Assembly (NCBI GenBank): GCA_000934665.2
Contig: KZ538893.1
Span: forward strand, 1-41,809
DNA: 41,809 nt
Origin: Catajapyx aquilonaris
Taxonomy: Eukaryota
Direction: 5' to 3'
The notes under the pieces are model-generated. The model made no database searches and was not told the origin of the DNA. It was given only the letters and a program-made list of their open reading frames with translations. Both the position numbers and the translations under genes were made by a program. Below are positions 1 to 24,584 of the stretch, one piece after another. Numbering within the stretch: position 1 is the first letter of the stretch; each line of letters starts with the position of its first letter.

Positions 1-68
1 GGGGGAGGCGTGAGTGTATGGTGAAAACGAAAAGGGGGGCGTCATGACGAAAAGGTTGGGAACCACTG
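1..68. mobile_element. Right end of a hAT-like non-autonomous DNA transposon, truncated by the window edge
   Basis: Ends AAAAGGTTGGGAACCACTG, the reverse complement of the CAGTGGTTCCCAACC hAT/Charlie-type TIR. It is followed by TTCTAATG, which resembles the NTCTAGAN Charlie target. Confidence 0.55.
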
Positions 69-117
69 TTCTAATGTGAAATGACAAATGAGTAAGTTGT
101 ATGGATACAGTTTATTC

Positions 118-205
118 GGGCCCCCTTAGGTCGGTTCCAGCCCGGGCCCTTGACCCCCCAGACCGCCCTGCTGGGGGTGCGGGCACCCCAGGCTAGGAAC
201 CCCTG
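118..205. mobile_element. Right end of a second hAT-like element
   Basis: GC-rich tract ending GGCTAGGAACCCCTG (reverse complement CAGGGGTTCCTAGCC), followed by CTCTATAG. No matching left end was seen. Confidence 0.4.
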
Positions 206-713
206 CTCTATAGCAATCACACAGTGTCTTGCAGAGCAGTCCTAATAATCATGAATATGGTGTGATGGCACCATCGAATGTTGTATAATTTCAGTCCTGA
301 AAGGTGGCATTTTCGGCTAGAAGATGGAAGGCAGACTGTTTGTCCCATGAATTCAATTTTCAGGACGATTCCGAGCGGTCAGTAGGCCTAGCCATTATTG
401 TAATTCTGGAGCAAGTAATAATTTTATGGGCTGGTATACTTGTTTACTAGTAACCTCATGACTTTTTGATTTGATTGCAAAGTGGAATTCCTTAATTTGA
501 GTGCGGAAGGGGAGTACGGACTTTTTCATTTCATTTGGCCCAGGATAATAATATGACAATAATATGGCAAGTTGATAAACAGGAATTGGCGTTGCTATAG
601 GTGATGGCATCATGTCAAAATAGGGTAATTAGGGAAAAAATAAGAGGAAAAAAATCATAACTTCTATCCTATACCAGAGGGAACTGTGAGGTTTTGAACA
701 CAGATCCACAATT

Positions 714-895
714 GAGGGAGGTGAAGTGGCGCTGCGGTAACGTATGCGCCAACGGATGTTAAGGTCCCGGGTTCGATCCCAGCCCGGGGACACCCCCTTC
801 ATCTCGTGCAGAGTTTGGTCGTCTCTGGCTTCGTCTCGGGTGGAATTTCCTTACACTAATCCACCCAGGGGAGTTCACAAAATGACCTGGCCACC
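714..895 (+). mobile_element. tRNA-derived SINE, family A (5' part)
   Basis: A-box-like TGGCGCTGCGGT and B-box GGTTCGATCCC (770-780). About 180 bp are highly similar to the reverse complement of 33050-33230. Confidence 0.85.
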
Positions 896-1976
896 CGGTT
901 TGGGGAGATGACACCAAAGTTTTTTGTGCGGCAAGATTGCTATGGCTACTTTTGGAACTAAGCTGCTTATTTTAAGCAGCTGCTTTTGTATAGTTACTTT
1001 TAATGGTCATTGAAGGCATTACCTACTAATAATACACCAAACTGTATCATCCATCCAAGCTCTGAACTGCAAAGTACGTATTTCCAATTAGGAATTGCCC
1101 ATTGGAACAATTGGCATGCCACGCACGTCAATTGCAGAACCCACTCTGTGCATGCCAGACCCCCATGCAGGGTTTTTAAAAAAGGACGGGTACTTGTAAC
1201 CTAATATTAACAGCTAATACTTTTGATAACCATTTGTGGAAGCCACGTAAAGTAACTGCTAATATAAGTAGCTTAGTGCCAACAAATAACCATATTAGTC
1301 GTACAAGTATTTTGGATCACCCTGTGCTACTCTATGTTACTAGAATTTTTGACTATTTCAGAATTTGTAACATACGCAGTATGCATAATATTAGTGTCAG
1401 AGGATGAAAATGGGTAGATTCTGTACCCAATGTATGTGATCCATGTTGCAGTTGGAAATGCTACTTATCTATGCTACTTGCCTTTTGCTGTGTGACAGGT
1501 CCAGTGTCCCTCGAATTTTTGGTCTTTGCTCGGTTTGACTCCTGCACTACCCGAAGATTTGCAAAAAGCTCTTACAAACGCTGGAATACTGCAGCAGAGA
1601 CTGAATTTGCTTTATTGCTTCTTATAGAATGGACATGAAGCATAAGGGGTTTGAAAAAACACACCCATGCACAATTAATTTCCAGAAAGTAAACTAGATA
1701 TTTTTTTAATGATTGGTGGTACTAAAATCTTGCACAATCGTTCTGTGGAGATGGAATGACAATCCGTCAGTTTTATGCAAAGAAAACAGCCATAAATAGA
1801 TTTTATTAGAGAGACGGGCTTGTGATTTTTCCACCCACAGCTCATCCAGAATGTCCATTGTTCATTAGACTTAATTAAAACGGGCTTGTGTACTTCTGTT
1901 CCACACTGCGTTAGTGAACATGATGTATAAAGCCACTACAGGGAAAGAATCCCCAGGATATCAAGCCAAGAATATA

Positions 1977-2221
1977 TGAGGGGTATCACATCAAAAGTGG
2001 CCAAGTCCAAAAAAAAGGGTCGTAAAATGAACAAAAACTGCTGATTACGTAACTTTCACGTGTACAATCTTGAAACTTTTTACGGCCATATGTTGCCACG
2101 GCTCAGCTACATACACAAATGTGCAATTAATACCCAATGATATTAAAATACATTATTGCTGGACGTATTTGTGTTACACCCCCCAAAATGGACTTGGCCA
2201 CTTTTGATGTGATACCCCTCA
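1977..2221. mobile_element. Tc1/mariner-type MITE
   Basis: Perfect 33-bp TIRs TGAGGGGTATCACATCAAAAGTGGCCAAGTCCA (1977-2009 / 2189-2221), flanked by TA on both sides. Confidence 0.9.
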
Positions 2222-2283
2222 TATATTTTTAAAGAATGAGAAGCTGCAGAATACGTCGATGAAACGCAATTGGGTAAGCAATT

Positions 2284-2893
2284 AGGTCATTCCACGCGAA
2301 AAGGGACATTTTGGTGAAAAGTCAAGTTTTAAAAGCAATTTTTGTTTTGCTTTTTAAACTCCCATGTCAACCACAATTTTGGTGTTTCTGTGGAATGACC
2401 GTCATGAAGAATAGATGAATGCTACTTCAGACCCATTCTCTTAACCCATTTTTATCCTAGGACAAACATGTCGGGTCAGTTATATGTGCTTTGTCCCGTC
2501 CGTTACCCACATTAAATTATAACAACTATACCAATTACATGCAACAACTTAATTATTATGAATGAACCTATTCTGTTGATAATTATTATGATAGTCTTCT
2601 ACAACATACAGAAAAATTTATTTCTGAAATGTTCAAGAGAACTGAGTTTTGCTATTATGTGTGCGACAATTAGTATATGCATGTTCATTTCATGTCCTGT
2701 CCATTAGCCGACTAAATGTAATTAAATCACCATGTTAAAACATACCAACATCTGATGTTTCATAAATCTTAACACCATCAGTATGTTGCTGTTGCAATGT
2801 TACATAACATTCAAAAACACTATACCTACACAATTTATATTTGAAAAAGGAAAATCCATTAATTTTGCCCCGTCCGTTACCGTGGAATGACCC
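2284..2893. mobile_element. Non-autonomous DNA transposon with AATT TSD (Sola1-like)
   Basis: TIRs AGGTCATTCCACG / CGTGGAATGACCC, with a 4-bp AATT duplication at 2280-2283 and 2894-2897. Confidence 0.65.
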
Positions 2894-4190
2894 AATTCCA
2901 TTTGTCTTGTCACATCATCGTCGCAGCTTGTAGCCAATCATGGTACTCTTTGCAGAGTTTTAAATATTACGTACATTTTAAAATATACTTAAGTATAATT
3001 TAAAAATACAATAGACCGTTTTAAACTATTGCTTGATTAATGACCTTTATTTAGAAAATAAATACTTCTAATTAGGTGTGATAAACACATTTTAAAAATC
3101 ACATGCCGACAATTTTAATGAAGTGCCCAATAACTGTATACTTTCCCCTACTCAGTGTCAGAATATTTAGGCCCAATATGGATGAAATGTGCAGTCTCCC
3201 GTATAATACAGTGCTAATGATTGGTCGATAGGTATGGTTGTTCGTGTTAGTTATTATCAGACCAAAATGTTGGCATAAAGCTGTTTGTTGTTACGAATTC
3301 CTAACAGCTCATATTTTTACGGGAAAATATAATATTTAGTCGATTGTAGGTCTACTGAAAGATTATTATTTCAAGGCCCTCCTTTCCGATACTACTGTAC
3401 GATATTGGCAAGACTCACTTGGAATTTGACATTATTGATGCAGGGTGTGCCAAGCCCAAGCACCCATGTAGTGAAACAATGACAGTTCATTTAACCTGTA
3501 AGCACCAAATCTATTTGCTGGGCTTAGAAGTATTTGTTCCAGAGTAGCTGATCAATAAAACAGATTGGCGCTTTTTTTACTCTAGCTAATACAGATTAAG
3601 CGTATATTGTTTATCAGTTTAATAATTAACCTATAAATTGTGGTACTAATATTAATAGCGGATATTAATATTACAAACTAGTCCTGACACCTCGGTCAAG
3701 AGCTCATACCTAATTAATTAATTATCAATCATAACAATATGCAGCCTCCTTGACAACATCCATGGGAAAGGCCCGTGCGGACCGTCACACCTCACGTAAC
3801 ACTATCGCTATAATTCACATAGTCCCCTATTTTCCAAACATTGAAAATCAAAAGAACATTTTCAGAAAAAACCAAATTGGCCTGGGTGTCCCAAACCTCC
3901 ACTAGCTATGGCTACACATATTATCCAATCGAACTGTTCACCACATGATCTAAATGGTGAAGAGTACGTAACACCACGTTCTTGAAAAGTGGTTTACGTG
4001 CCCTGCAGCGGTGCTATCGCAGGAAGGTTGGGTTGGGTTGAAAGGAGCCTGGGGGTGGAGGCGGTAGGTAGGTAGTCTTGGATGGAAGTGACAGGAACAA
4101 TCCCGATTCGTGGTTCGCCGGTTCACCTCGCGGCTGCGGCGCCGTCTGGCATCTGTCTTTGTCAACCTTTTGCAGCCGGGTTTTACGGAG

Positions 4191-4320
4191 CTCTCTCTCT
4201 CTCTCTCTTTTCCGTCTCCGGGGGTGGAGGCCCCAGGAAGGTGGGCTTGTATGGGGGGGGGGGGTACTTGGCATTGATTTCTGTGTTGCATTTCTCCTCC
4301 GGGGCTTTGATAACAAAAAA

Positions 4321-4356
<36 letters not shown>
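4191..4356. repeat. Simple-repeat cluster: (CT)n 4191-4208, poly-G 4253-4264, (GA)n 4325-4356
   Basis: Visible directly. It explains the SLSLSL and ERERER pseudo-ORFs in the ORF track. Confidence 0.9.
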
Positions 4357-4359
<3 letters not shown>

Positions 4360-4608
4360 AAGAGTAATGATAATCTGCCGTGATGAATCCGACATAGGGT
4401 TGTGTTCCAAGGAAATAGGTGGATTCATAATGTATTGGCATCTGCAGTCCCAAAATTGAACATATGTCATAGGGAATGTGTATGATAGGACATGCAAACC
4501 TGACGGTTGCTTCAGCTTGACACGTGCTGGACTTTATGATATTATATGATGTACTGGAGAAGTTGGAACTTTCTATTGAAAGAATGCAATTTTTACAACA
4601 TACCGGTA

Positions 4609-4750
4609 CTATCTGGTTCAAATACTTTTGGCCACTTTATCCTGGTCTTGAAGCAACCCTTCGCACAGACCCCACGTTAAGGAGGTGAGTGTGTGTGACG
4701 GGTTCCGTCAAGACCAGGATAAAGTGGCCAAAAGTATTTGAACCCGATAG
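4609..4750. mobile_element. Palindromic MITE family M, copy 1
   Basis: Inverted repeats CTATCTGGTTCAAATACTTTTGGCCACTTTATCCTGGTCTTGA / TCAAGACCAGGATAAAGTGGCCAAAAGTATTTGAACCCGATAG, TA-flanked. The core is shared with the copies at 25583, 35607 and 40423. Confidence 0.9.
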
Positions 4751-7244
4751 TACGTTTACATGTGAGCGATTTGACGAGCGAAGTCTTCGCCGAGGCTGAT
4801 TAACCAAAGTTACTAATATTGTTTGAGGCGAAAATAGATTGTTAATTTCAGCCTCGGCGAAGATTTCGCTTGTCAAATAAATCTCTCACAAAAACGCACC
4901 TTTATGGTGATCCTTTTATATATTTTTTAAATTATTTTTTGTATACCCCGTGATAGGGCGGAGCCCTTTTAGGGGGGAAGGGGAGGTTCCCTAGGGAGGG
5001 AGCTGTAATTATAGTCNCCCCCCCCCCCCCCGGTTGGGAACCAGGGCATTATAACATATTTATTTCAAGAATTGCCATCGACGATCGACGCACCAAATAT
5101 TTGCAAAATAGGCACACGATGCTTAAACACCCCCCGGAGATGGAGCCAAATACCCCAAACTTTTACAAAGAGAGGGCCCGCCGCATGCGAAAATTTTTTG
5201 GGGGTTCAAGTAACACTTTTAAAAAAAAGTTGCGCACTTGCATGGGCGATGGGCCCCTGCTTTTGGTGGGCCCCTATATAGGCTTCAGCCTATTTAAGCC
5301 ATGGATAATGCGGCCCTGCGCGACACGCGTTCTGGGTTGGGTATGAGGGTAACATGGGACAAATTCATGGGGACGTAGGAGGCTTGAACCGTATTCAGGC
5401 CCGAGCCCTGCCTTGGCTGGTGCCATCCTCTGCCAGTCTGCCTATACGGGACTGTTGTTGAGTTTAGGCGTGTTAAAACTGTTTCAGTTACCCCCTCATC
5501 TCTCTCCTCTTCCTCGCTCACTCTTAAGTCTTACCTGCACTTCCTTTCACATATCACATTTTTTCTCACTGTCTATGGGGGCCCCCAACCGGGGGGGCCC
5601 GGGTTGGTTTTCCAACCCTGCAACCCCTGCCAGGCCGCCCCTGACCCCCAGGGGGTGCGAGCACCTGGATTTACAACCAAAGTAACTCTTCTTACCCTCC
5701 TGAATTTTGAAAATCTTTTGATTTTCTAAATCTGCTTGGCCTATAGTGTTGAGAAAACATCACCTCCGCTGCTAATTTCCACGTTAGCAGGGTGAAAATA
5801 CAGCCAAAAGGCGATATTCCGAAGCCACAACACCTGCATCAGGTCGCGAGTCGCCGGTCCCGGCTGCCCGGTGGCGGTTGCGCATTTCACCTCAGGTCAA
5901 ATTATCTTGCCCACGTACAAAAATGTTCCTGCAGTATGACAATATTGACAAACAAATACAGTAATACTCTATACAATTCAGATGATATCTCTCCTTCACA
6001 ATAGACAGCAACAGCTTCAAAGGAGTCCCCCTGGTCACGAAATACAATATGTATAGGATGGATATTTTTTTAAAAGTTCCCTCGCCCCTCCATAACTTTT
6101 CGACTAGTCCAGATAGAAGCAACGAATTAAAGTTGCCACTTGCTAAGGACACATGCAACCTCTTGATCATGAGTTGCTTGTGTAGCTATCAGCTGTGATG
6201 TGCATTTAGCAGTCGCTTCTGTCATCTCGCGTTTTACATGCGACAACATTGCGGTATTCAGTTTTGCTAACGATGCTGGCAGGGTAAACAACATGGGCCA
6301 GTTTACTTGGAGCGAGAAGCGCACGATCGAAGAAGTTGTGCTGTACCGTGTCATTTGGAACCCTGCTGCAGGTAGAATTCGTAGTGTGGAGCAAGTACAG
6401 TGCCACCTGGAGGCTCATAAGCGGCCAGAAACAGTAGCCGTTTTGCCCCCAGAAAGTACAAGATTCGAGCCTCGAGCCTCTCCGTGTGCTAAATTTTCTC
6501 AGTAATGCTGGGTGCTCCTATGGCAAGTGATTGTTATTCGTGACTAGAAGTGGTTCTTTTTTGTTTCATTATTCTGGTGACCATGGGTGACCATGAAATT
6601 AAATAATAAGACTAATAATAAATGTTACAATACCGTTTCAATTTTTACTGCTGATACCTGCTTCACTCACCGGCAGAGAATGCCTGTAGTTTCAGAGCCC
6701 ACGTGTGGTCGGGTGAAAACTTTTCAGTGTATGCTACACTACATGATAAATAGCCAATTAAGTTATCTCGGATATAAGGCTGCAAAGACCAAATGACACC
6801 CCTACATAAAGTGAGCGTCTGGACCACAGTAATTTACCCCAGAAGTTTGTGGGTATCAATACGGAACACCCTGTACATTTTGTTCCATAATGCCTACTAC
6901 TGTGTGACTGACGTGACCCATCTTCCAAAGATTTTGGAATTAATTAATGAACCATGCTGCTAAGGAACCAAATCGGTAAAATTAAACCTGAATTTTGATA
7001 TTGCCTTTACATCAACATTGCAATACTGTACTACACAGTAAATAAACGATGCCACTTCTCTAGATGGTAGGCTACAGTATTTCATCCAGTTAATCAGATT
7101 TCCCGAACAATCAAGGTGAATTTTCGCATACAACTCTTTTACTTTCTCAATAATATCCAAGTAGCTGTAGAGTACGTATAATGCCAAAAAGAGCTATTCC
7201 GGATAATCCATATCCGACGAGCGTACAGTATAATGTACTTATTC

Positions 7245-7576
7245 GGGGGAGGCACGGTGGCCGAGATGGTAACGTCTCGGCTTGCTATGCGAAAGGTCCC
7301 GGGTTCAAATCCCCTCCCGGGAGTAAACCTTTCGCTTGCGTCATTGGGTCGTGACCCGCGCCTAAGGAGGCGTCTTGGCAACCTGACCTCCTGGGGGACT
7401 GCACCTGGCCCACCGCTGGACAATGCACCTGCACATGTGTCCCCTCCCCAAATCCCCCTACCCTTACCCCATTTCCTAGTAATCCTCGCACCGGTGTTCG
7501 AAGAAAAAGTAATTAGAAAAACTGTATGGTGGTTGCCACCCCCCTATAACGACCAAAGTGTTGTATCACGGGGTAA

Positions 7577-7640
<64 letters not shown>
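7245..7640 (+). mobile_element. tRNA-derived SINE, family B (full length)
   Basis: tRNA-like head (TGGCCGAGATGG ... GGTTCAAATCCC), long (AAT)n tail at 7577-7645, and a 15-bp TSD ATAATGTACTTATTC at 7230-7244 and 7641-7655. A homologue lies at 23615-23975. Confidence 0.9.
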
Positions 7641-7646
<6 letters not shown>

Positions 7647-8085
7647 TACTTATTCATATGCAAGTAAGAACAAACTGCTGCTAAATATCAAGGGTATCAC
7701 AGCTATCGTCCAAATTACCCTCTCATTTTACATAATATTATGAATGTCATTATTTCGGTAATTAAACCAGAAAATGAGCTGCCAGGGTTTCTCAGCCAAG
7801 TAAAAATACCGGTACATATTTTAACGAATAATAACGCGTAGTATATATAGTTCCTCACAGCAATTATAACGCTTATGAAAGTTTGCAAATCAACATTCCC
7901 TGCTTCATTATGTACCCATTTAATGCAAAATTGATTAACATGAACGTTAAAGCATTAAATGGCACCCAGTGTTCCGTGAACAACCCAGACATAGCTGAAT
8001 GGCTTTAGAGGGGAGGACTTACTGAACTCATGTCTCTGCTACATTATAGCCTGCAACCATAATAAGCTCCATGTCCTTCCAACAG

Positions 8086-8258
8086 GAGAGACCCTGAGCA
8101 TGGAGTCTGTGCGCAACTGCCTGAAGCTGCTGGAGCAGTGGCACATTGTGGACGTCTACTGCCACGAAGGGATGCGAGTTGTCTACCTGAATGAATCTTA
8201 CGACGTTGAAGACGGTTTACAGCCATTGATAGAGAAATGGCACCATTTTAGAAAATGA
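8086..8258 (+). CDS. GPAM: Terminal coding exon of mitochondrial glycerol-3-phosphate acyltransferase 1 (GPAT1/GPAM, Drosophila mino-like)
   Basis: Acceptor ATGTCCTTCCAACAG, then (G)ETLSMESVRNCLKLLEQWHIVDVYCHEGMRVVYLNESYDVEDGLQPLIEKWHHFRK*. This matches the remembered arthropod GPAT C-terminal motif 'GEs.s.d.irNclKLLE.W'. AATAAA at 8766-8771. Upstream exons were not found in the window. Confidence 0.72.
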
Positions 8259-8765
8259 AATGCACTGTAGGAAAAAAAAAAAAGAAGAAACAAGCACTTC
8301 AACTGGTGACCTGTGATTTTTTTTTGGTTCGTTTGTTGCTTCAGCAGTCTGAAGAATGGTTGGACTGAGTGTTTAGTTGTGTACAGCTTTGTATAGGACA
8401 GCACCATATTTTTTAAATAGTGTCCTAGCGATGTTTTTGAATGATCATGTTGTCCGGAAATCGGAATGGAAAGCTGTGCACAACCAGAGGAAGTGGATGT
8501 CTCACAGTGCATCAAATTATTATTATTATTATTTGGTGTCATGTAGCGTGCTCAGCAAATTTTTCTGTTGTTGTTACAACGTTTTTTTTTTTGTAGACAT
8601 GATCAGATTACCTTTTTAGAGCCTATGTTTACGTACGAGTTAATTTTTGTTATAAAGAAAAATCATGAAAATGTGATGAAATTGAAAAGTTTATTGCCAA
8701 CGTACATGCTGGAAAACCCACAGTATTTTATTGAGAAATTTCATATTATTTTTATTCAGATTTAA

Positions 8766-8771
8766 AATAAA
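8766..8771 (+). terminator. Candidate polyadenylation signal of the GPAT gene
   Basis: AATAAA at the end of an AU-rich tract about 500 nt after the stop codon. Confidence 0.4.
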
Positions 8772-8821
8772 GTCACTGGCAACAGTGAAATTAATGGTTG
8801 ATTTTTTTAAAGTGTTTGCAA

Positions 8822-8846
8822 TATATATATATATATATATATATAT
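8822..8846. repeat. (TA)n microsatellite
   Basis: Visible directly. Confidence 0.9.
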
Positions 8847-8857
8847 TTTTACGTTCG

Positions 8858-9033
8858 AATCCGTGTTCGAATCGAACGTCACGTGAAACCCAAGGGTGCC
8901 AATCCGTGTGCGAATCGAACGTCACGTGACATCCAAGGGTGCCAATCCGTGTTCGAATCGAACATCACGTGACATCCAAGGGTGCCAATCTGTGTGCGAA
9001 TCGAACGTCACGTGACATCCAAGGGTGCCAATC
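8858..9033. repeat. Tandem repeat, 4 x 43 bp
   Basis: Unit AATCCGTGT(T/G)CGAATCGAACGTCACGTGACATCCAAGGGTGCC starts at 8858, 8901, 8944 and 8987. Confidence 0.95.
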
Positions 9034-9036
9034 ATA

Positions 9037-9250
9037 TTTTCCCGCGCAAAATACCCACGCGCAACCTGTCTGCGCATCCTTCGTTTACACACTTCATTAT
9101 CAGGAAAGTTGACCAATAAAATCTCAGCACCAAGTCCTGGTAGCCAATAACACACGCGCTTCTTCCAGTAGCTAGATCATGTAAACCGAAGCCTTGAAAT
9201 GTAACGCGTGCTGTGATTGGCCAGTTTCCAAGTCGGCCATATTGGAATCG
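9037..9250 (+). promoter_or_regulatory. Putative cell-cycle (E2F/NF-Y/CHR-type) promoter of the small ORF/Cap-G unit
   Basis: TTTCCCGC at 9038-9045; CCAAT at 9113 and 9144 (31 bp apart); ATTGG at 9216 and 9241; CTTGAA at 9193-9198. Confidence 0.5.
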
Positions 9251-9347
9251 CCTGTTGTAGTTCTAAAGCCGCCAAAAAAAAAGGGAGCCGGAAAAGTTCT
9301 TATTCCAAGTTTCCAACATTTCGAACAGTTTTTTTTAGAATCAGTGC

Positions 9348-9744
9348 ATGGTCGTGTTGCCGTCACTGCATCGGTACCATCAGCTGCCAGGGCGGATGAA
9401 GCGGAAGCAGCCCGACTGGAGGAACTACTGCATACGAACACATCCAGGGGAACTGGATCTGGAGCCTCTATTGAAAATACCAAAGCTTGAGACGCCTCAG
9501 AAGCCTGACTCTGTAAGAACAACAACAATATATTGCTTCTTTAATAATTGTTGGCGGACAATGTCGGCATGCACTAATAATGATAATTATTATAATAATG
9601 ATTTGTCAGGTTCTGGAAGATTGTTCAAACGAGGAAATTCTGGCCGACTTTAACTCGTATCAGTTCTGGAGAGAGCTGCTTCCGGTTGTGGATCCAAACC
9701 CTATTCTGTTCCCGATTGAGCCCATGCTGGTGGAGGAGCCATGA
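9348..9744 (+). CDS. Spliced small ORF (99 aa; 83 aa from ATG 9396) with an AF1q/C9orf40 WRNPLPNID-like motif; stop overlaps the Cap-G start
   Basis: Exons 9348-9512 and 9610-9744, joined by a 97-bp phase-0 intron (GTAAGA...CACTAAT...TTTGTCAG). Product: MVVLPSLHRYHQLPGRMKRKQPDWRNYCIRTHPGELDLEPLLKIPKLETPQKPDS/VLEDCSNEEILADFNSYQFWRELLPVVDPNPILFPIEPMLVEEP*. Confidence 0.65.
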
Positions 9745-12700
9745 TTAACGTGCCGATGAAGCTGGAGGTGGTGAAGGCCTTAGCTGGCTCACAGTGCATA
9801 ATGGAAGCGCTGGAGAAATGCCAGGACGGAGCGGCAACACATCCGAAGCTAGTCGTCAAGCTTAGAAAACTTTATACATCGGTAACGGGTTTGTTCCGTG
9901 TTACGTCGACCATTTACGATAAGATCCCATATTTTTCAGATTGGCTTGACTACCTTCGCAAAGTCAGTTTTCTTCTACCTGGCTGTTGGGATGAATAAGC
10001 AAGAAAAGCATCCTCGTTTAGAGTGTTTGTGGGAATTTGTGGCCAAAGTTGCTGCCCTGAATATGAAGGAGGAGGAGAAGGAGGAGGAGAAGCCGGAGAC
10101 AGAGGATGACGAATTGGATGATTTGATGGCTCCTTTTCTGAAGGAACTGGTCTGGTTTTTAAGCGAAATGTCACGCTCCACGATCACCCATGTGCGTTTG
10201 CACGCATGTGAGATTGCGAATTGCCTACTGGATGTGTCGAAAAGTGATGGGTTTGACACGGAACTGTTCGATCAGCTGGTGGAAATGATGCTGACTAAAT
10301 TAAAGGACAAGGTATGAAAGTATGGTTCAAATATGGGTCAAAAATGGTCTAAATATTCAGTATTTCGATAGTACTGACATCACAAACTAGCAATTATGAT
10401 TGCCAAACATTAACTGCAATGTAACTAGCAGCTTATGACATTAGAGCTGATCAGTAGTTTGATCATGCTCCTTTCCCTTCGGAGTCACTTTTATCCTGAT
10501 TTATGAGCTCTTAATGACCCACACTCGAGAACGTAACGTATCATTTTATGCCGCAGTTACTTCATTGTATATTCTTTACCAATAGATGGCTTCTGTCCGG
10601 GCGAAGGCCGCCTTAGCCTTGAAACGCCTGCAGATTCCGAGCGACAGAGATTGCCCGGTTACCACGCAGTACTTGTTCCACCTAAGTAATGATCCAAGTG
10701 TTGAAGTTCGTACGGCTATCTTGACGTGCTTGGTGGCCACTGTCCGTGCCCTTCCGCATGTTGTAGATCGCACTAGGGACACAAGTGACGCAATTAGGTG
10801 CAAGGCCTTCACCTTCATATCCAAAAAGGTTCACTTCAGGGCACTCACCATCTCTTCAAGAAACAGGCTGCTCAAGGAAGGACTTAAAGATCCTGGTAAT
10901 ATTTTTATTGCTTTTGTGTGTGGATGGGTGTGTTTGTGTGCGCATGTCTGCTGTAGTGAGCAATGTTAGGGATAATCATTGTTAGACTTTGAGAGATACT
11001 GACTAATATTTTATTGCCGTCCAGTTGAGAATGTGCGTAAGACTGTGGAGGTGGAACTGATTCCGGCTTGGCTTCGCAACTTTGATGACAACATTGTGCA
11101 ATTTTTGGAGGGCTTTCGTGTGGACATCAACACTGAAGTTGGGGTCCATGTTCTCAACGCCATTTTGATGTGAGTCTTGCTAATCACTCTTATTGTCTTG
11201 CAAAGTAAATGTGATTTTGGGAGAATTAATTGTGATTTTATTATTGCGTACCAAACGTGGCTGGATTTGTGCTAGTTACTGACAAATTAAAAGCATGTTC
11301 CAACACCTGTCCTGCTGGAATTTTTAAAATTACATTGTTTATGTCTTGTGTCGTCCTGTTCGCTTGCTGTTGTGGCAGATGTAATCTTAGTTTTTCATTA
11401 TTATATGCGTAGGCGTGTGCCAACGAAAGAGCTGCTGGAAAAATTTAACTTGTTGGATCCTGCAACGAAGCTGATTCCCAAGGAAGAACTAGGCCCGGAA
11501 AACGCATTGTACTGGAGGGTCCTGTGCGAGTGCCTGTGCAAAAAGGAGGGAGAACAAGCCATTGAAGAGATCATGCCAGAACTTTCCAAGTATTGCAATT
11601 ACCTGAAAAGGTAAGTGATAGCTCATTGTATACTAGGCAATGGAGACAGTCTAACAAATTTTTTCCCATAGCATTTTCCATGACTTGCCAGCCATTGAAG
11701 GTGAGAGAGAACAGCAAAAGGCCGAATTTGTTGCTGAGCAGCTTCTCATTATGGCCAAAATGTTTGACATGTCGGATGAAGTTGGAAGGTAATCCTGTTT
11801 TCTTTTAAGGATAGGAAGGTATTAATATCTCAGCTTGACAATTTTAGTTGATTAAACATTTTAGTGTCCCCACATAATGGGGAAGGTGTTATAGTTTTTA
11901 TAATTTGTTGTATGTGTCACTTCAGAAATCATCTGGAGATGCTGATCGGGACATTGCTGGCCTCGGTGACTCTCCCAATATCACTGGTGTCTTCCCTTGT
12001 ATCATGCATGGACCGTGTGATCCCAAATCCTACTCAGCGCCTGTGCAAGCTGGCTGAAATAGTGGCAGACATCCGTGAGCCATTGACACAGGTGGTCCAG
12101 GTGGATAGCGAGGAGGACGTGAGAAAAAAGAAGCTGGCGCAGGCAGAATTGCGCGTGAAGTATCAGCTGCTCAGAGATGATTTGGAGATGGCTGTGGAGC
12201 GACAAAATTTTGGGGAAGCCCAGGAGCTGAAGGATAAGATCAAAGAAATTGAAAATGAGTTGCAGGATATGGAGCAAAGCTGTACTCCAATGGTCACAGA
12301 GGTGGGCGCACATCTTCCGCTTGAAATTCCCCATGGACGGTGCTCCTAGGTAAAAATGACAATCAGAAATATTTTTCTTTTAGATGCGCACACTTCGCAA
12401 GGATGACGAGACAACCATCAAGAGCCTGAAGATCGTGTGCTGCATGCTTGAAGGCTCTAAAGTGAATTCTCTCAGCTCCACCATCTGCTCCCTGAAGGAC
12501 AACTTTATCACTGAATGCTTGCAGGTGAGCATGATGCGGTTTCTTCTAAACGTGCAGGAGAGTTTGTACGTCTTTAATTACCTTCCAGAGTGACAATGAA
12601 GATATTCGCTACTGGTGTTTTAAGGCCCTGGGTCTCTGCTGCCTCCTTAAGAGAGATGTTGCCAAGGAGCATTTCCCACTTTTTAAACAGGTCATGAGTT

Positions 12701-13863
12701 GCCCTTGCATTTATAAGTTGCATGGCCAGACCCGAACTGAACCAAAGAATGCCTGATGTTTTTCATTTCCCGCAGGCCATGTACATTGAGGGGAATGATC
12801 TCATACTCATGTGCGTGAAAATCGTCTGCGACTTGATTATTGTGTTTGGTTTGGATGCCTTTGACATCAAGTGCACTGAAGACATGTTTGAAGAGGAGGT
12901 GACGGAAGCCAATGCGGAGGCCAATTGCGTTGTGTTCATTTATCAGCTGATGCTCACCTGTAAGGCGGAGGTAAGCAAGTGGTATGCGCGTCAACTTGCA
13001 CTTGGTATAAGCCAGTGCTTCCCTTCTAGGATGTCGACATTCAACAGTATGCTGCTAGGAGCCTGTGCAAGATGCTTTTGTTTAAGCGCCTCCATTCCTT
13101 GGCCTTGCTCAAGAAGCTGCTGCTCATGTGGCACGACCCTCAATATAGTAGGTGTTTAACAGTAGTCATGAAAGTAGTGTGTGCAGCATGAATGCAATTT
13201 AATGCGCATTTTACGTAGTGTGAAGTCGCTGTGAACTGGCCAGAAATACATAATTAACACCATGTTTTCACATCCCTTAGAAGACGACAAGGAGCTGATC
13301 TACACATTGGGCACATTTTTCGGCATGTACGGACAGAAGTATGGCAATCAGTGTGCTGTGGCGGATGTTTTCTTTCCCGTTCTGGAAGAGGTGGAGTCTG
13401 CCCCAGAGGCCTCGACACTCTGCTCTGTGGATGTGCCCGCTATGATCAAGACCTTGGCTGGCTTGACCTACCGTGGCAACTGCAGGGAAAATGATGATAG
13501 TGGTTCTAAACCCTGCCTTCATGCCAAATTGGCCTTAGCTGCTTTGGAAAAGGTGCGGAACAGACCAAGAGATTGTTCGATGTGGGTTAAGGTGGTCAGC
13601 AACATGCATATCGACACTGATGACCAGGCAGTTACTCGGCAAATCCATGATATGGCACAGGTCTGCCTGAAGGTACGGCGTTATTTCCTTGTCACGACAT
13701 TGTCAATGCTATTGCAATGCACGTGTGACTAATTTTTAATCCCTCTCTTTTGTCCATTCAGAGTGTGATGGAAAGAGGCTTGTGTAGAACCCTGACTGTA
13801 TTCATTGGCCGCTTGCCTGATTTTGATGATGAGATGGATAAAGAAGGGAAAGGTGAAGGATGA
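9741..13863 (+). CDS. NCAPG: Condensin complex subunit 3 (Cap-G/NCAPG), 13 exons, about 902 aa
   Basis: Exons 9741-9881, 9940-10311, 10586-10895, 11025-11169, 11413-11610, 11672-11788, 11926-12301, 12384-12524, 12589-12690, 12776-12970, 13030-13147, 13281-13672 and 13762-13863. All introns are GT-AG with consistent phases (2709 nt in total). Cap-G HEAT motifs include KLVVKLRKLY, LKDKMASVRAKAALALKRLQ, NDPSVEVRTAIL, RTRDTSDAIR, PENALYWR, EFVAEQLL..FDMSDEVGR and KALGLCCLL. An in-frame TGA at 9717 lies upstream of the ATG. Confidence 0.95.
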
Positions 13864-24544: not shown

Positions 24545-24584
24545 NNNNNNNNNNNNNNNNNNNNNNNNNNNNNNNNNNNNNNNN
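24545..24584. other. Assembly gap (40 N) after a poly-G run
   Basis: Run of N. Confidence 0.99.

Follow-up and report, generated by a model that had tools for sequence, protein, structure and literature searches.

In the 41,809-nucleotide (nt) stretch of Catajapyx aquilonaris contig KZ538893.1 analysed here (hereafter, the window), the gene encoding the condensin I subunit Cap-G/NCAPG is very probably preceded, without a gap, by a second gene, real and conserved, for a small motif-bearing protein. The small open reading frame (ORF) is matched over both of its exons by an independent predicted protein of 86 aa from another organism, P0004, and its codon usage is specific to the proposed frame. 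We consider it likely that one mRNA carries both this ORF and Cap-G, and we favour, with moderate confidence, an overall account in which the conserved small protein is encoded by two 5' exons of the Cap-G transcription unit, the mRNA is dicistronic and Cap-G is reached by leaky scanning. The exons, the intron, the start and stop codons, the motif and the E2F-like site described below lie on the forward strand; no strand is assigned to a CCAAT cluster and a TTCGAA element.

The anatomy of the small ORF was read from the sequence and its translation. A frame opened by the ATG at 9348-9350 stays open through 9512 and, once spliced, comprises 99 codons, or 83 codons when counted from a second in-frame ATG at 9396, whose product begins MKRKQPDWR. 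Coding exon 1 (9396..9512, 39 codons from this conserved start, supported by the P0004 match and the codon score) is followed by a phase-0 intron of 97 nt (9513..9609) that begins with GTAAGA, contains a branch-like CTAAT at 9574 and closes with the acceptor TTTGTCAG, ending at 9609. Coding exon 2 (9610..9744, 44 codons plus TGA) lies in the same exon as the start of Cap-G. The GC content of the intron is 0.289, compared with 0.545 and 0.496 in the flanking coding parts. When GT-AG pairs were enumerated (donors 9470-9559, acceptors ending 9570-9649), the frame stayed open in three of them, and of these 9513/9609 alone places the start of exon 2 in register with the orthologue P0004. At the distal end, the TGA of the small ORF (9742-9744) and the ATG of Cap-G (9741-9743) have TG in common (ccATGAtt), so that an ATGA at 9741..9744 joins the two coding sequences (CDSs) by an overlap of 4 nt. 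A TGA in the Cap-G frame at 9717..9719, 8 codons before the Cap-G ATG, blocks an N-terminal extension of Cap-G. The two-exon ORF with its phase-0 intron, the ATGA overlap and the blocking TGA had all been described in an earlier sequence-only reading of this DNA, and re-reading and translating 8800-10400 bore out every one of its coordinates. The exact ATGA overlap is by itself statistically unremarkable, since an ORF in frame +1 has to terminate wherever an ATG has A as its next base. A pyrimidine-rich tract is also present at 9700-9721, in which the AG at 9719-9720 could, judging from the letters alone, serve as an alternative in-frame acceptor; its use would remove 37 codons, including the motif described below, and would leave the stop codon and the Cap-G start unchanged.

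The proposal that this upstream ORF is genuine coding sequence is upheld by the P0004 match together with the codon usage. When the 44-aa peptide of exon 2 was run with HMMER exhaustively against 1.84 billion cluster representatives, six matches were obtained at an expectation value (E) <=0.001, the true relatives among them being P0004 (E 8.7e-5) and P0007 (174 aa, E 2.1e-4); the other four of the six (P0003, P0005, P0006 and P0008) proved on reading to be repetitive, unrelated proteins and were set aside. In pairwise BLASTP comparisons, exon 2 aligns to P0004 residues 45-86 with 60% identity (E 7e-14) and exon 1, taken from 9396, aligns to residues 1-30 with 47% identity (E 2e-4), both halves being colinear with P0004. 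The exon 1 alignment begins Met-to-Met, with MKRK-PDW in both proteins, and the C-termini end within two codons of each other (EPMLVE-stop in P0004, EPMLVEEP-stop in the window). In the window the two halves are out of frame with each other (97 mod 3 = 1), and as P0004 holds both in a single frame, the splice is supported; the near-identical ends, in turn, argue against an assembly frameshift that split an extension off Cap-G.

In line with these alignments, a codon model trained on 713 Cap-G codons against the local non-coding composition scored the whole small ORF at +37.8 bits in the proposed frame versus -14.3 and -12.0 bits in the others, with the same tendency in exon 1 (9396..9512; +14.3 versus -11.0 and +2.7) and in exon 2 (+23.5 versus -4.9 and -14.3). 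At 0.455 bits per codon, the small ORF ranks first among the 218 stop-free segments of at least 60 codons in the window, and none of 200 segments outside Cap-G outscores it. The optional 16-codon N-terminal extension (9348..9395), whose first ATG has T at position -3, is without a counterpart in P0004 and scores similarly in the three frames (7.9, 5.0 and 3.9 bits). As P0004 starts at MKRK and the stretch from 9348 has no frame preference, the conserved protein is most likely the 83-aa form rather than the 99-aa one.

Further relatives were sought in several collections. A protein-homologue search with P0004 returned P0004 itself only, among 3 candidates, and a profile scan of viral contigs gave no relatives among 227 matched stretches. 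Three loci, among 253 matched stretches of metagenome contigs, were rejected as due to chance, since only LAGFNSYQFWR matches in them and is then followed by unrelated sequence with nearby stops. In the contigs of prokaryote genomes, the one locus obtained, from a bacterial metagenome-assembled genome (ADFNSYQFYRSPVV), was rejected as a chance match.

Exon 2 encodes a short linear motif, DFNSYQFWRELLPVVD (9646..9693), that resembles the WRNPLPNID motif of Pfam family PF15017, to which it appears to be related through a bona fide member. P0007 passes the PF15017 profile with 36 bits and bears two motif copies, to which exon 2 aligns at E 7e-8 and 3e-7 (BLASTP), and a two-sequence profile built from the window and P0004 matches P0007 with an hhalign probability of 94.7% (E 6e-8). 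When the PDB was searched with P0007, residues 146-187 of human NOB1 (EFSSFMFWRNPLPNID), in 6g18_y, were obtained at E 0.059. The core motif that can be read from P0007 and NOB1 is aromatic-N/S-S/T-x-x-F-W-R/K-x-P-L-P-x-I/V-D, and DFNSYQFWRELLPVVD fits it at every position but one, at which Leu stands for the first Pro of PLP; P0004 keeps this Pro (REPLPSVD). As in PF15017 proteins, an acidic run precedes [FY]N[ST]xQFW[RK]xxLPx[IV]D in the window peptide. There are differences as well: P0007 has two copies and the window one clear copy, LLP stands in the window for PLP, and the window peptide would be an upstream cistron instead of a stand-alone gene. Among the carriers that the sequence-only reading had named, AF1q/MLLT11 and C9orf40 are probably members of PF15017, and PPP4R1 found no support; the human carrier that did emerge from our searches is NOB1. 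Full-text literature searches found neither the motif name WRNPLPNID nor a described binding partner, and searches for C9orf40, MLLT11 and the motif together, or for AF1q and NOB1 together, found nothing; C9orf40 and NOB1 occurred together only in a study of hub genes in Turner syndrome, judged irrelevant.

The remaining peptide features that had been pointed out, MKRK and TPQK, are both present along with DFNSYQFWRELLPVVD, but conservation separates them: MKRK is kept in P0004, as part of a conserved basic N-terminus (MKRK-PDWR), and the presumed cyclin-dependent kinase (CDK) site TPQK is not. A low-confidence AlphaFold2 model of P0004 has a predicted local distance difference test value (pLDDT) of 54 and a predicted template modelling score (pTM) of 0.16, with two short helices only, one of which covers YQFWRE, equivalent to the motif of the window. 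The small protein is thus probably an intrinsically disordered carrier of short linear motifs. The exon 1 N-terminus encoded at 9411-9470 reads PDWRNYCIRTHPGELDLEPL in the window and PDWRTRSDQPDLREP in P0004 and, judged by eye, could be a degenerate first copy of a W-R...P-x-x-D motif, which is thinkable given that P0007 has two copies.

The downstream gene is identified by its sequence as the condensin I subunit Cap-G/NCAPG, with its N-terminus in the exon shared with the small ORF, as had been proposed; the evidence consists of Cnd3 and HEAT matches and of colinearity with human condensin subunit 3 (NCAPG; PDB chain 6igx_B). Coding exon 1 (9741..9881, 47 codons, with a phase-0 donor at 9882) has no PDB match when taken alone. 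Exon 2 (9940..10311) aligns to residues 56-168 of 6igx_B (E 0.0035), and exon 3 (10586..10895), which encodes HEAT repeats, aligns to residues 171-270 (E 6e-23; Pfam HEAT, E 1.1e-7). Further downstream, the Cnd3-domain exons span 12698..13732, with limits that are approximate, having been set from open frames only; within them, the match of 13235-13732 to PF12719 (Cnd3) reaches 44.3 bits (cutoff 25.8) and that of 12698-13159 is weaker. Since exon 2 aligns from NCAPG residue 56, the 47 codons of exon 1 stand for roughly the first 50 residues, and the stop at 9717, which closes the Cap-G frame, leaves as possible starts of Cap-G only 9741 and, five codons further on, 9756, both of which lie in the shared exon. 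A large protein-database search for longer relatives returned none among 128 candidates for exon 2 and none among 763 for exon 3, within the limits of a word index; given the match of exon 3 to human NCAPG at E 6e-23, these blanks reflect the word index and not the lineage. An open frame inside Cap-G (11852-12349) also matches the Pfam UVR (UvrB/UvrC) motif at E 3.8e-5, with 23.7 bits against a cutoff of 21.5; rather than a genuine UVR domain, a segment with a helical hairpin or coil is the probable cause of this match.

The arrangement of candidate control elements points to a single transcription unit. Upstream of the small ORF lie an E2F-like site, TTTCCCGCGC (9038..9047), whose pattern, TTTSSCGC, is represented by just 3 matches in the window; a CCAAT cluster (9113..9245; forward at 9113 and 9144, inverted at 9216 and 9241) that may form the core promoter; and, 23 nt before the first ATG, TTCGAA (9320..9325), which we take to resemble the cell-cycle homology region (CHR) consensus TTYGAA. 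Eight of the 101 CCAAT/ATTGG occurrences in the window fall between 8899 and 9245, including four in a tandem repeat. E2F, NF-Y and CHR motifs are to be expected at the promoter of a cell-cycle gene such as Cap-G, and the set found here may represent the cell-cycle promoter of the unit. When E2F, CCAAT and E-box motifs were looked for in 9400-9760, none was found. Likewise, no AATAAA occurs from 9116 to 11700, so that transcription of the small ORF has to continue into the exons of Cap-G. With this and the 4-nt overlap of the CDSs, the contention that there is no room for a separate poly(A) site and promoter holds: two separately conserved coding regions on the same strand lack the space for a promoter and poly(A) site of their own, as expected of a dicistronic unit.

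The surroundings of these elements are repetitive. A 43-bp unit is present in 4.1 tandem copies (93% matches) at 8858-9033, just before the E2F-like site (9038), with an E-box CACGTG and a CCAAT in each copy; the array might serve the unit as an enhancer or promoter module in repeated form. An (AT)13 microsatellite lies just before it, at 8821-8846.

According to the account that we favour, a promoter located upstream of 9348 and composed of the E2F-like, CCAAT and CHR-like elements would drive one dicistronic mRNA. Ribosomes starting at the weak-context upstream AUGs would produce the small protein (83 aa, or 99 aa from 9348), while those scanning past these AUGs would start at the better-context Cap-G AUG at 9741; the peptide itself would act in trans, perhaps as a motif-bearing adaptor in proliferating cells. 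Termination-reinitiation at the AUGA would be a second, less likely route to Cap-G. In this regard, each of the three ATGs that precede 9741 in the spliced leader (9348, 9396 and 9724) is in the small-ORF frame, and the base at -3 is T, C and C, respectively, versus G at the Cap-G ATG; the upstream AUGs are thus weak and that of Cap-G is better, which is the order of contexts that leaky scanning calls for.

The sequence-only reading had preferred a different use of the same dicistronic mRNA, namely termination-reinitiation at the AUGA, with the ribosome restarting one base upstream to make Cap-G. Stop and start do overlap exactly (9741-9744), and the end of the small ORF is kept within two codons in P0004, which would fit a positional constraint. 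Eukaryotic reinitiation, on the other hand, drops steeply past about 30 codons in the absence of a tethering element, and this ORF, far from being a short upstream ORF (uORF), has 83-99 codons. Caliciviruses and influenza B M2 achieve termination-reinitiation at AUGA or UAAUG by means of a termination upstream ribosome-binding site (TURBS) element; the window has the stop/start overlap in common with them and differs in that the gene is nuclear and its upstream ORF spliced, and in having no UGGGA (TURBS-type) motif in 9610-9760. The predicted RNA fold of 9660-9820 shows no unusual structure at the junction (z -0.60), and Rfam found no element in 8800-10400, its two sub-threshold matches being attributable to chance. 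On these grounds (the length of the ORF and the lack of a UGGGA motif, of unusual structure and of an Rfam element) leaky scanning is placed ahead of reinitiation, which we judge unlikely; the weak upstream AUG contexts fit leaky scanning as well or better. The small ORF could instead be a conserved-peptide uORF acting in cis, whose nascent C-terminus (...PIEPMLVEEP-stop) slows termination and tunes Cap-G, the released peptide being functionless. Few residues are indeed as well conserved as the last ones, which read P[IT]EPMLVE in both the window and P0004, and the window ORF ends in Pro-stop. Conservation is not confined to the C-terminus, however, but extends to the N-terminal MKRK-PDWR and to the WRNPLPNID-like motif, and this motif, common to the free-standing P0007 and to human NOB1, points to a function in trans; in addition, 83-99 codons is long for a stalling uORF. 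We therefore regard a purely cis-acting role as improbable.

The transcript structure is subject to alternatives too. The two coding regions might be overlapping genes that are transcribed separately, most Cap-G coming from monocistronic mRNAs that start in the intron or exon 2 of the small ORF, or from another 5' exon. Exclusive dicistrony is indeed the minority condition in D. melanogaster, where FlyBase lists 159 dicistronic pairs and only 45 loci that are exclusively dicistronic (PMC4528330), and an initiator (Inr)-like TCAGTT is found in the window at 9660. This TCAGTT, however, lies inside the conserved YQFW codons, and a match resembling the downstream promoter element (DPE) is 5 nt out of register with it. 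Moreover, the E2F-like, CCAAT and CHR-like motifs are located upstream of the small ORF (9038-9325) rather than in 9400-9760, and, with no AATAAA after the small ORF before 11700, its mRNA would enter the Cap-G exons anyway, all of which makes separate transcription quite unlikely. We give hardly any credence to the view that there is no separate gene at all, the ORF being a chance frame in the Cap-G 5' untranslated region or a Cap-G N-terminus split off by a one-base assembly error. The window peptide is without a Pfam match and a single orthologue was found, as this view would have it, but an independent protein matches both exons and has its first and last residues in common with the ORF product, and only in the proposed frame does codon usage resemble that of Cap-G. 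An assembly error, for its part, is at odds with P0004 ending within two codons of the window stop and with the alignment of Cap-G exon 2 starting as early as NCAPG residue 56, so that a 99-aa extension would not fit.

Several points weigh against the account that we favour, a dicistronic mRNA with leaky scanning and a WRNPLPNID-related product. The profile check that the sequence-only reading had suggested failed, in that the exon peptides of the window do not match PF15017 even at E<=10, and P0004 reaches only 20.8 bits (E 7e-4), below the gathering cutoff of 27 bits; the resemblance to WRNPLPNID stands, then, by way of P0007 and not by a PF15017 match of the window peptide itself. The single orthologue found, P0004, is available as protein only and is a singleton from an assembled contig of 1485 nt. 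Regarding translation, the leader contains 3 AUGs where 6.9 are expected (shuffle P 0.07) and no out-of-frame AUG before the Cap-G start (shuffle P 0.22), neither of which is significant, and no start context here is a good fit to the insect consensus. Splicing, the start of transcription and the common mRNA have all been predicted from the DNA. Finally, D. melanogaster Cap-G is absent from the FlyBase 2015 list of polycistronic genes; Cap-G/CG34438 does not appear in supplement files 2-12 of PMC4528330, including the polycistronic list in File S1, and a literature search for Cap-G as a bicistronic or dicistronic gene found nothing relevant.

Insect dicistronic pairs with short CDS overlaps are already established as a kind. 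FlyBase holds 18 D. melanogaster gene pairs with coding sequence in common in different frames, mostly over less than 40 nt (PMC4528330). The view that AUGA-type overlaps are rare in animal nuclear genes accordingly needs tempering, as they are uncommon but not unheard of, short overlaps being annotated in Drosophila (PMC4528330). The dicistronic pairs described there resemble the window in having conserved coding regions on one strand, exons in common and a small upstream ORF, and differ from it in that the shared transcript is here deduced from sequence. Comparable, too, are the leaky-scanning bicistronic mRNAs of Drosophila Sloth1/Sloth2 (PMC9681215) and of green-algal loci (PMC11892635), which the window would resemble in its weak upstream contexts and in having no out-of-frame AUG before the downstream start. 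The two products of the window, however, are not paralogues, in contrast to the Sloth1/Sloth2 type, and its scarcity of AUGs is not significant.

The uncharacterised human gene C9orf40 is co-expressed with genes of the S and G2-M phases (PMC6788831, PMC5217208), and its knock-down led to senescence markers (PMC7333371); PMC10298883 contains no statement on C9orf40 domains. If C9orf40 is indeed a WRNPLPNID protein, such expression would suit a gene expressed together with Cap-G, and coupling an arthropod relative to Cap-G would give this relative the same cell-cycle expression through a shared transcript.

A more far-reaching idea, to which we assign a very low probability, is that the vertebrate WRNPLPNID cell-cycle proteins (C9orf40/AF1q type) have their arthropod equivalent in the small protein, captured as an upstream cistron and acting on condensin I as a co-translated activator or inhibitor. 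Its basis is the conserved basic N-terminus together with the aromatic motif, both encoded on the Cap-G unit. These two elements would dock where Cap-G binds the motifs of KIF4A, NCAPH and NCAPD2, and capture as an upstream cistron would keep the small protein and Cap-G always co-made. NCAPG/Ycg1 docks short linear motifs of KIF4A, of the NCAPH N-terminus, of the NCAPD2 C-terminus, of Sgo1 and of Lrs4; those of KIF4A, NCAPH and NCAPD2 bind NCAPG through an acidic patch (D136, D137 and D141) and a hydrophobic pocket (PMC11790958). The docking peptides are disordered, and in them hydrophobic or aromatic residues come after a basic patch (PMC11790958). MKRK-PDW and YQFW in the window are similar in this respect; no sequence alignment links these motifs to the small protein, and docking is an idea only. 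A complex prediction with three exon-encoded Cap-G chains and P0004 gave a score of 0.00, which counts neither for nor against docking.

The rest of the window offers little else in terms of protein domains. Scanned open frames of at least 90 aa outside Cap-G (1-9000 and 14000-41809) gave no Pfam match at E<=0.001, the nearest being a weak, sub-threshold DUF3671 match in the open frame at 7182-7667 (E 0.0011), and Pfam comparison of 57 further open frames of the window recovered only parts of Cap-G, the one UVR match and the one weak DUF3671 match. The assembly gaps and ambiguities of the window (40 N at 24545-24584 and single N at 5017 and 24858) are far from the small ORF.

The value of these findings resides in this particular pair and its motif, and not in a new principle, the kind being known (PMC4528330). 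They also illustrate how small upstream cistrons escape annotation, since one predicted protein was matched among the 1.84 billion cluster representatives. The small protein would provide a handle on the WRNPLPNID motif, which it has in common with human NOB1 and, probably, with AF1q and the cell-cycle gene C9orf40; should docking on condensin hold true, it would supply a first function for this orphan motif. If the shared mRNA is real, C. aquilonaris would offer a clean animal case in which a conserved small protein and a core subunit of the chromosome-condensation machinery are made from one message.

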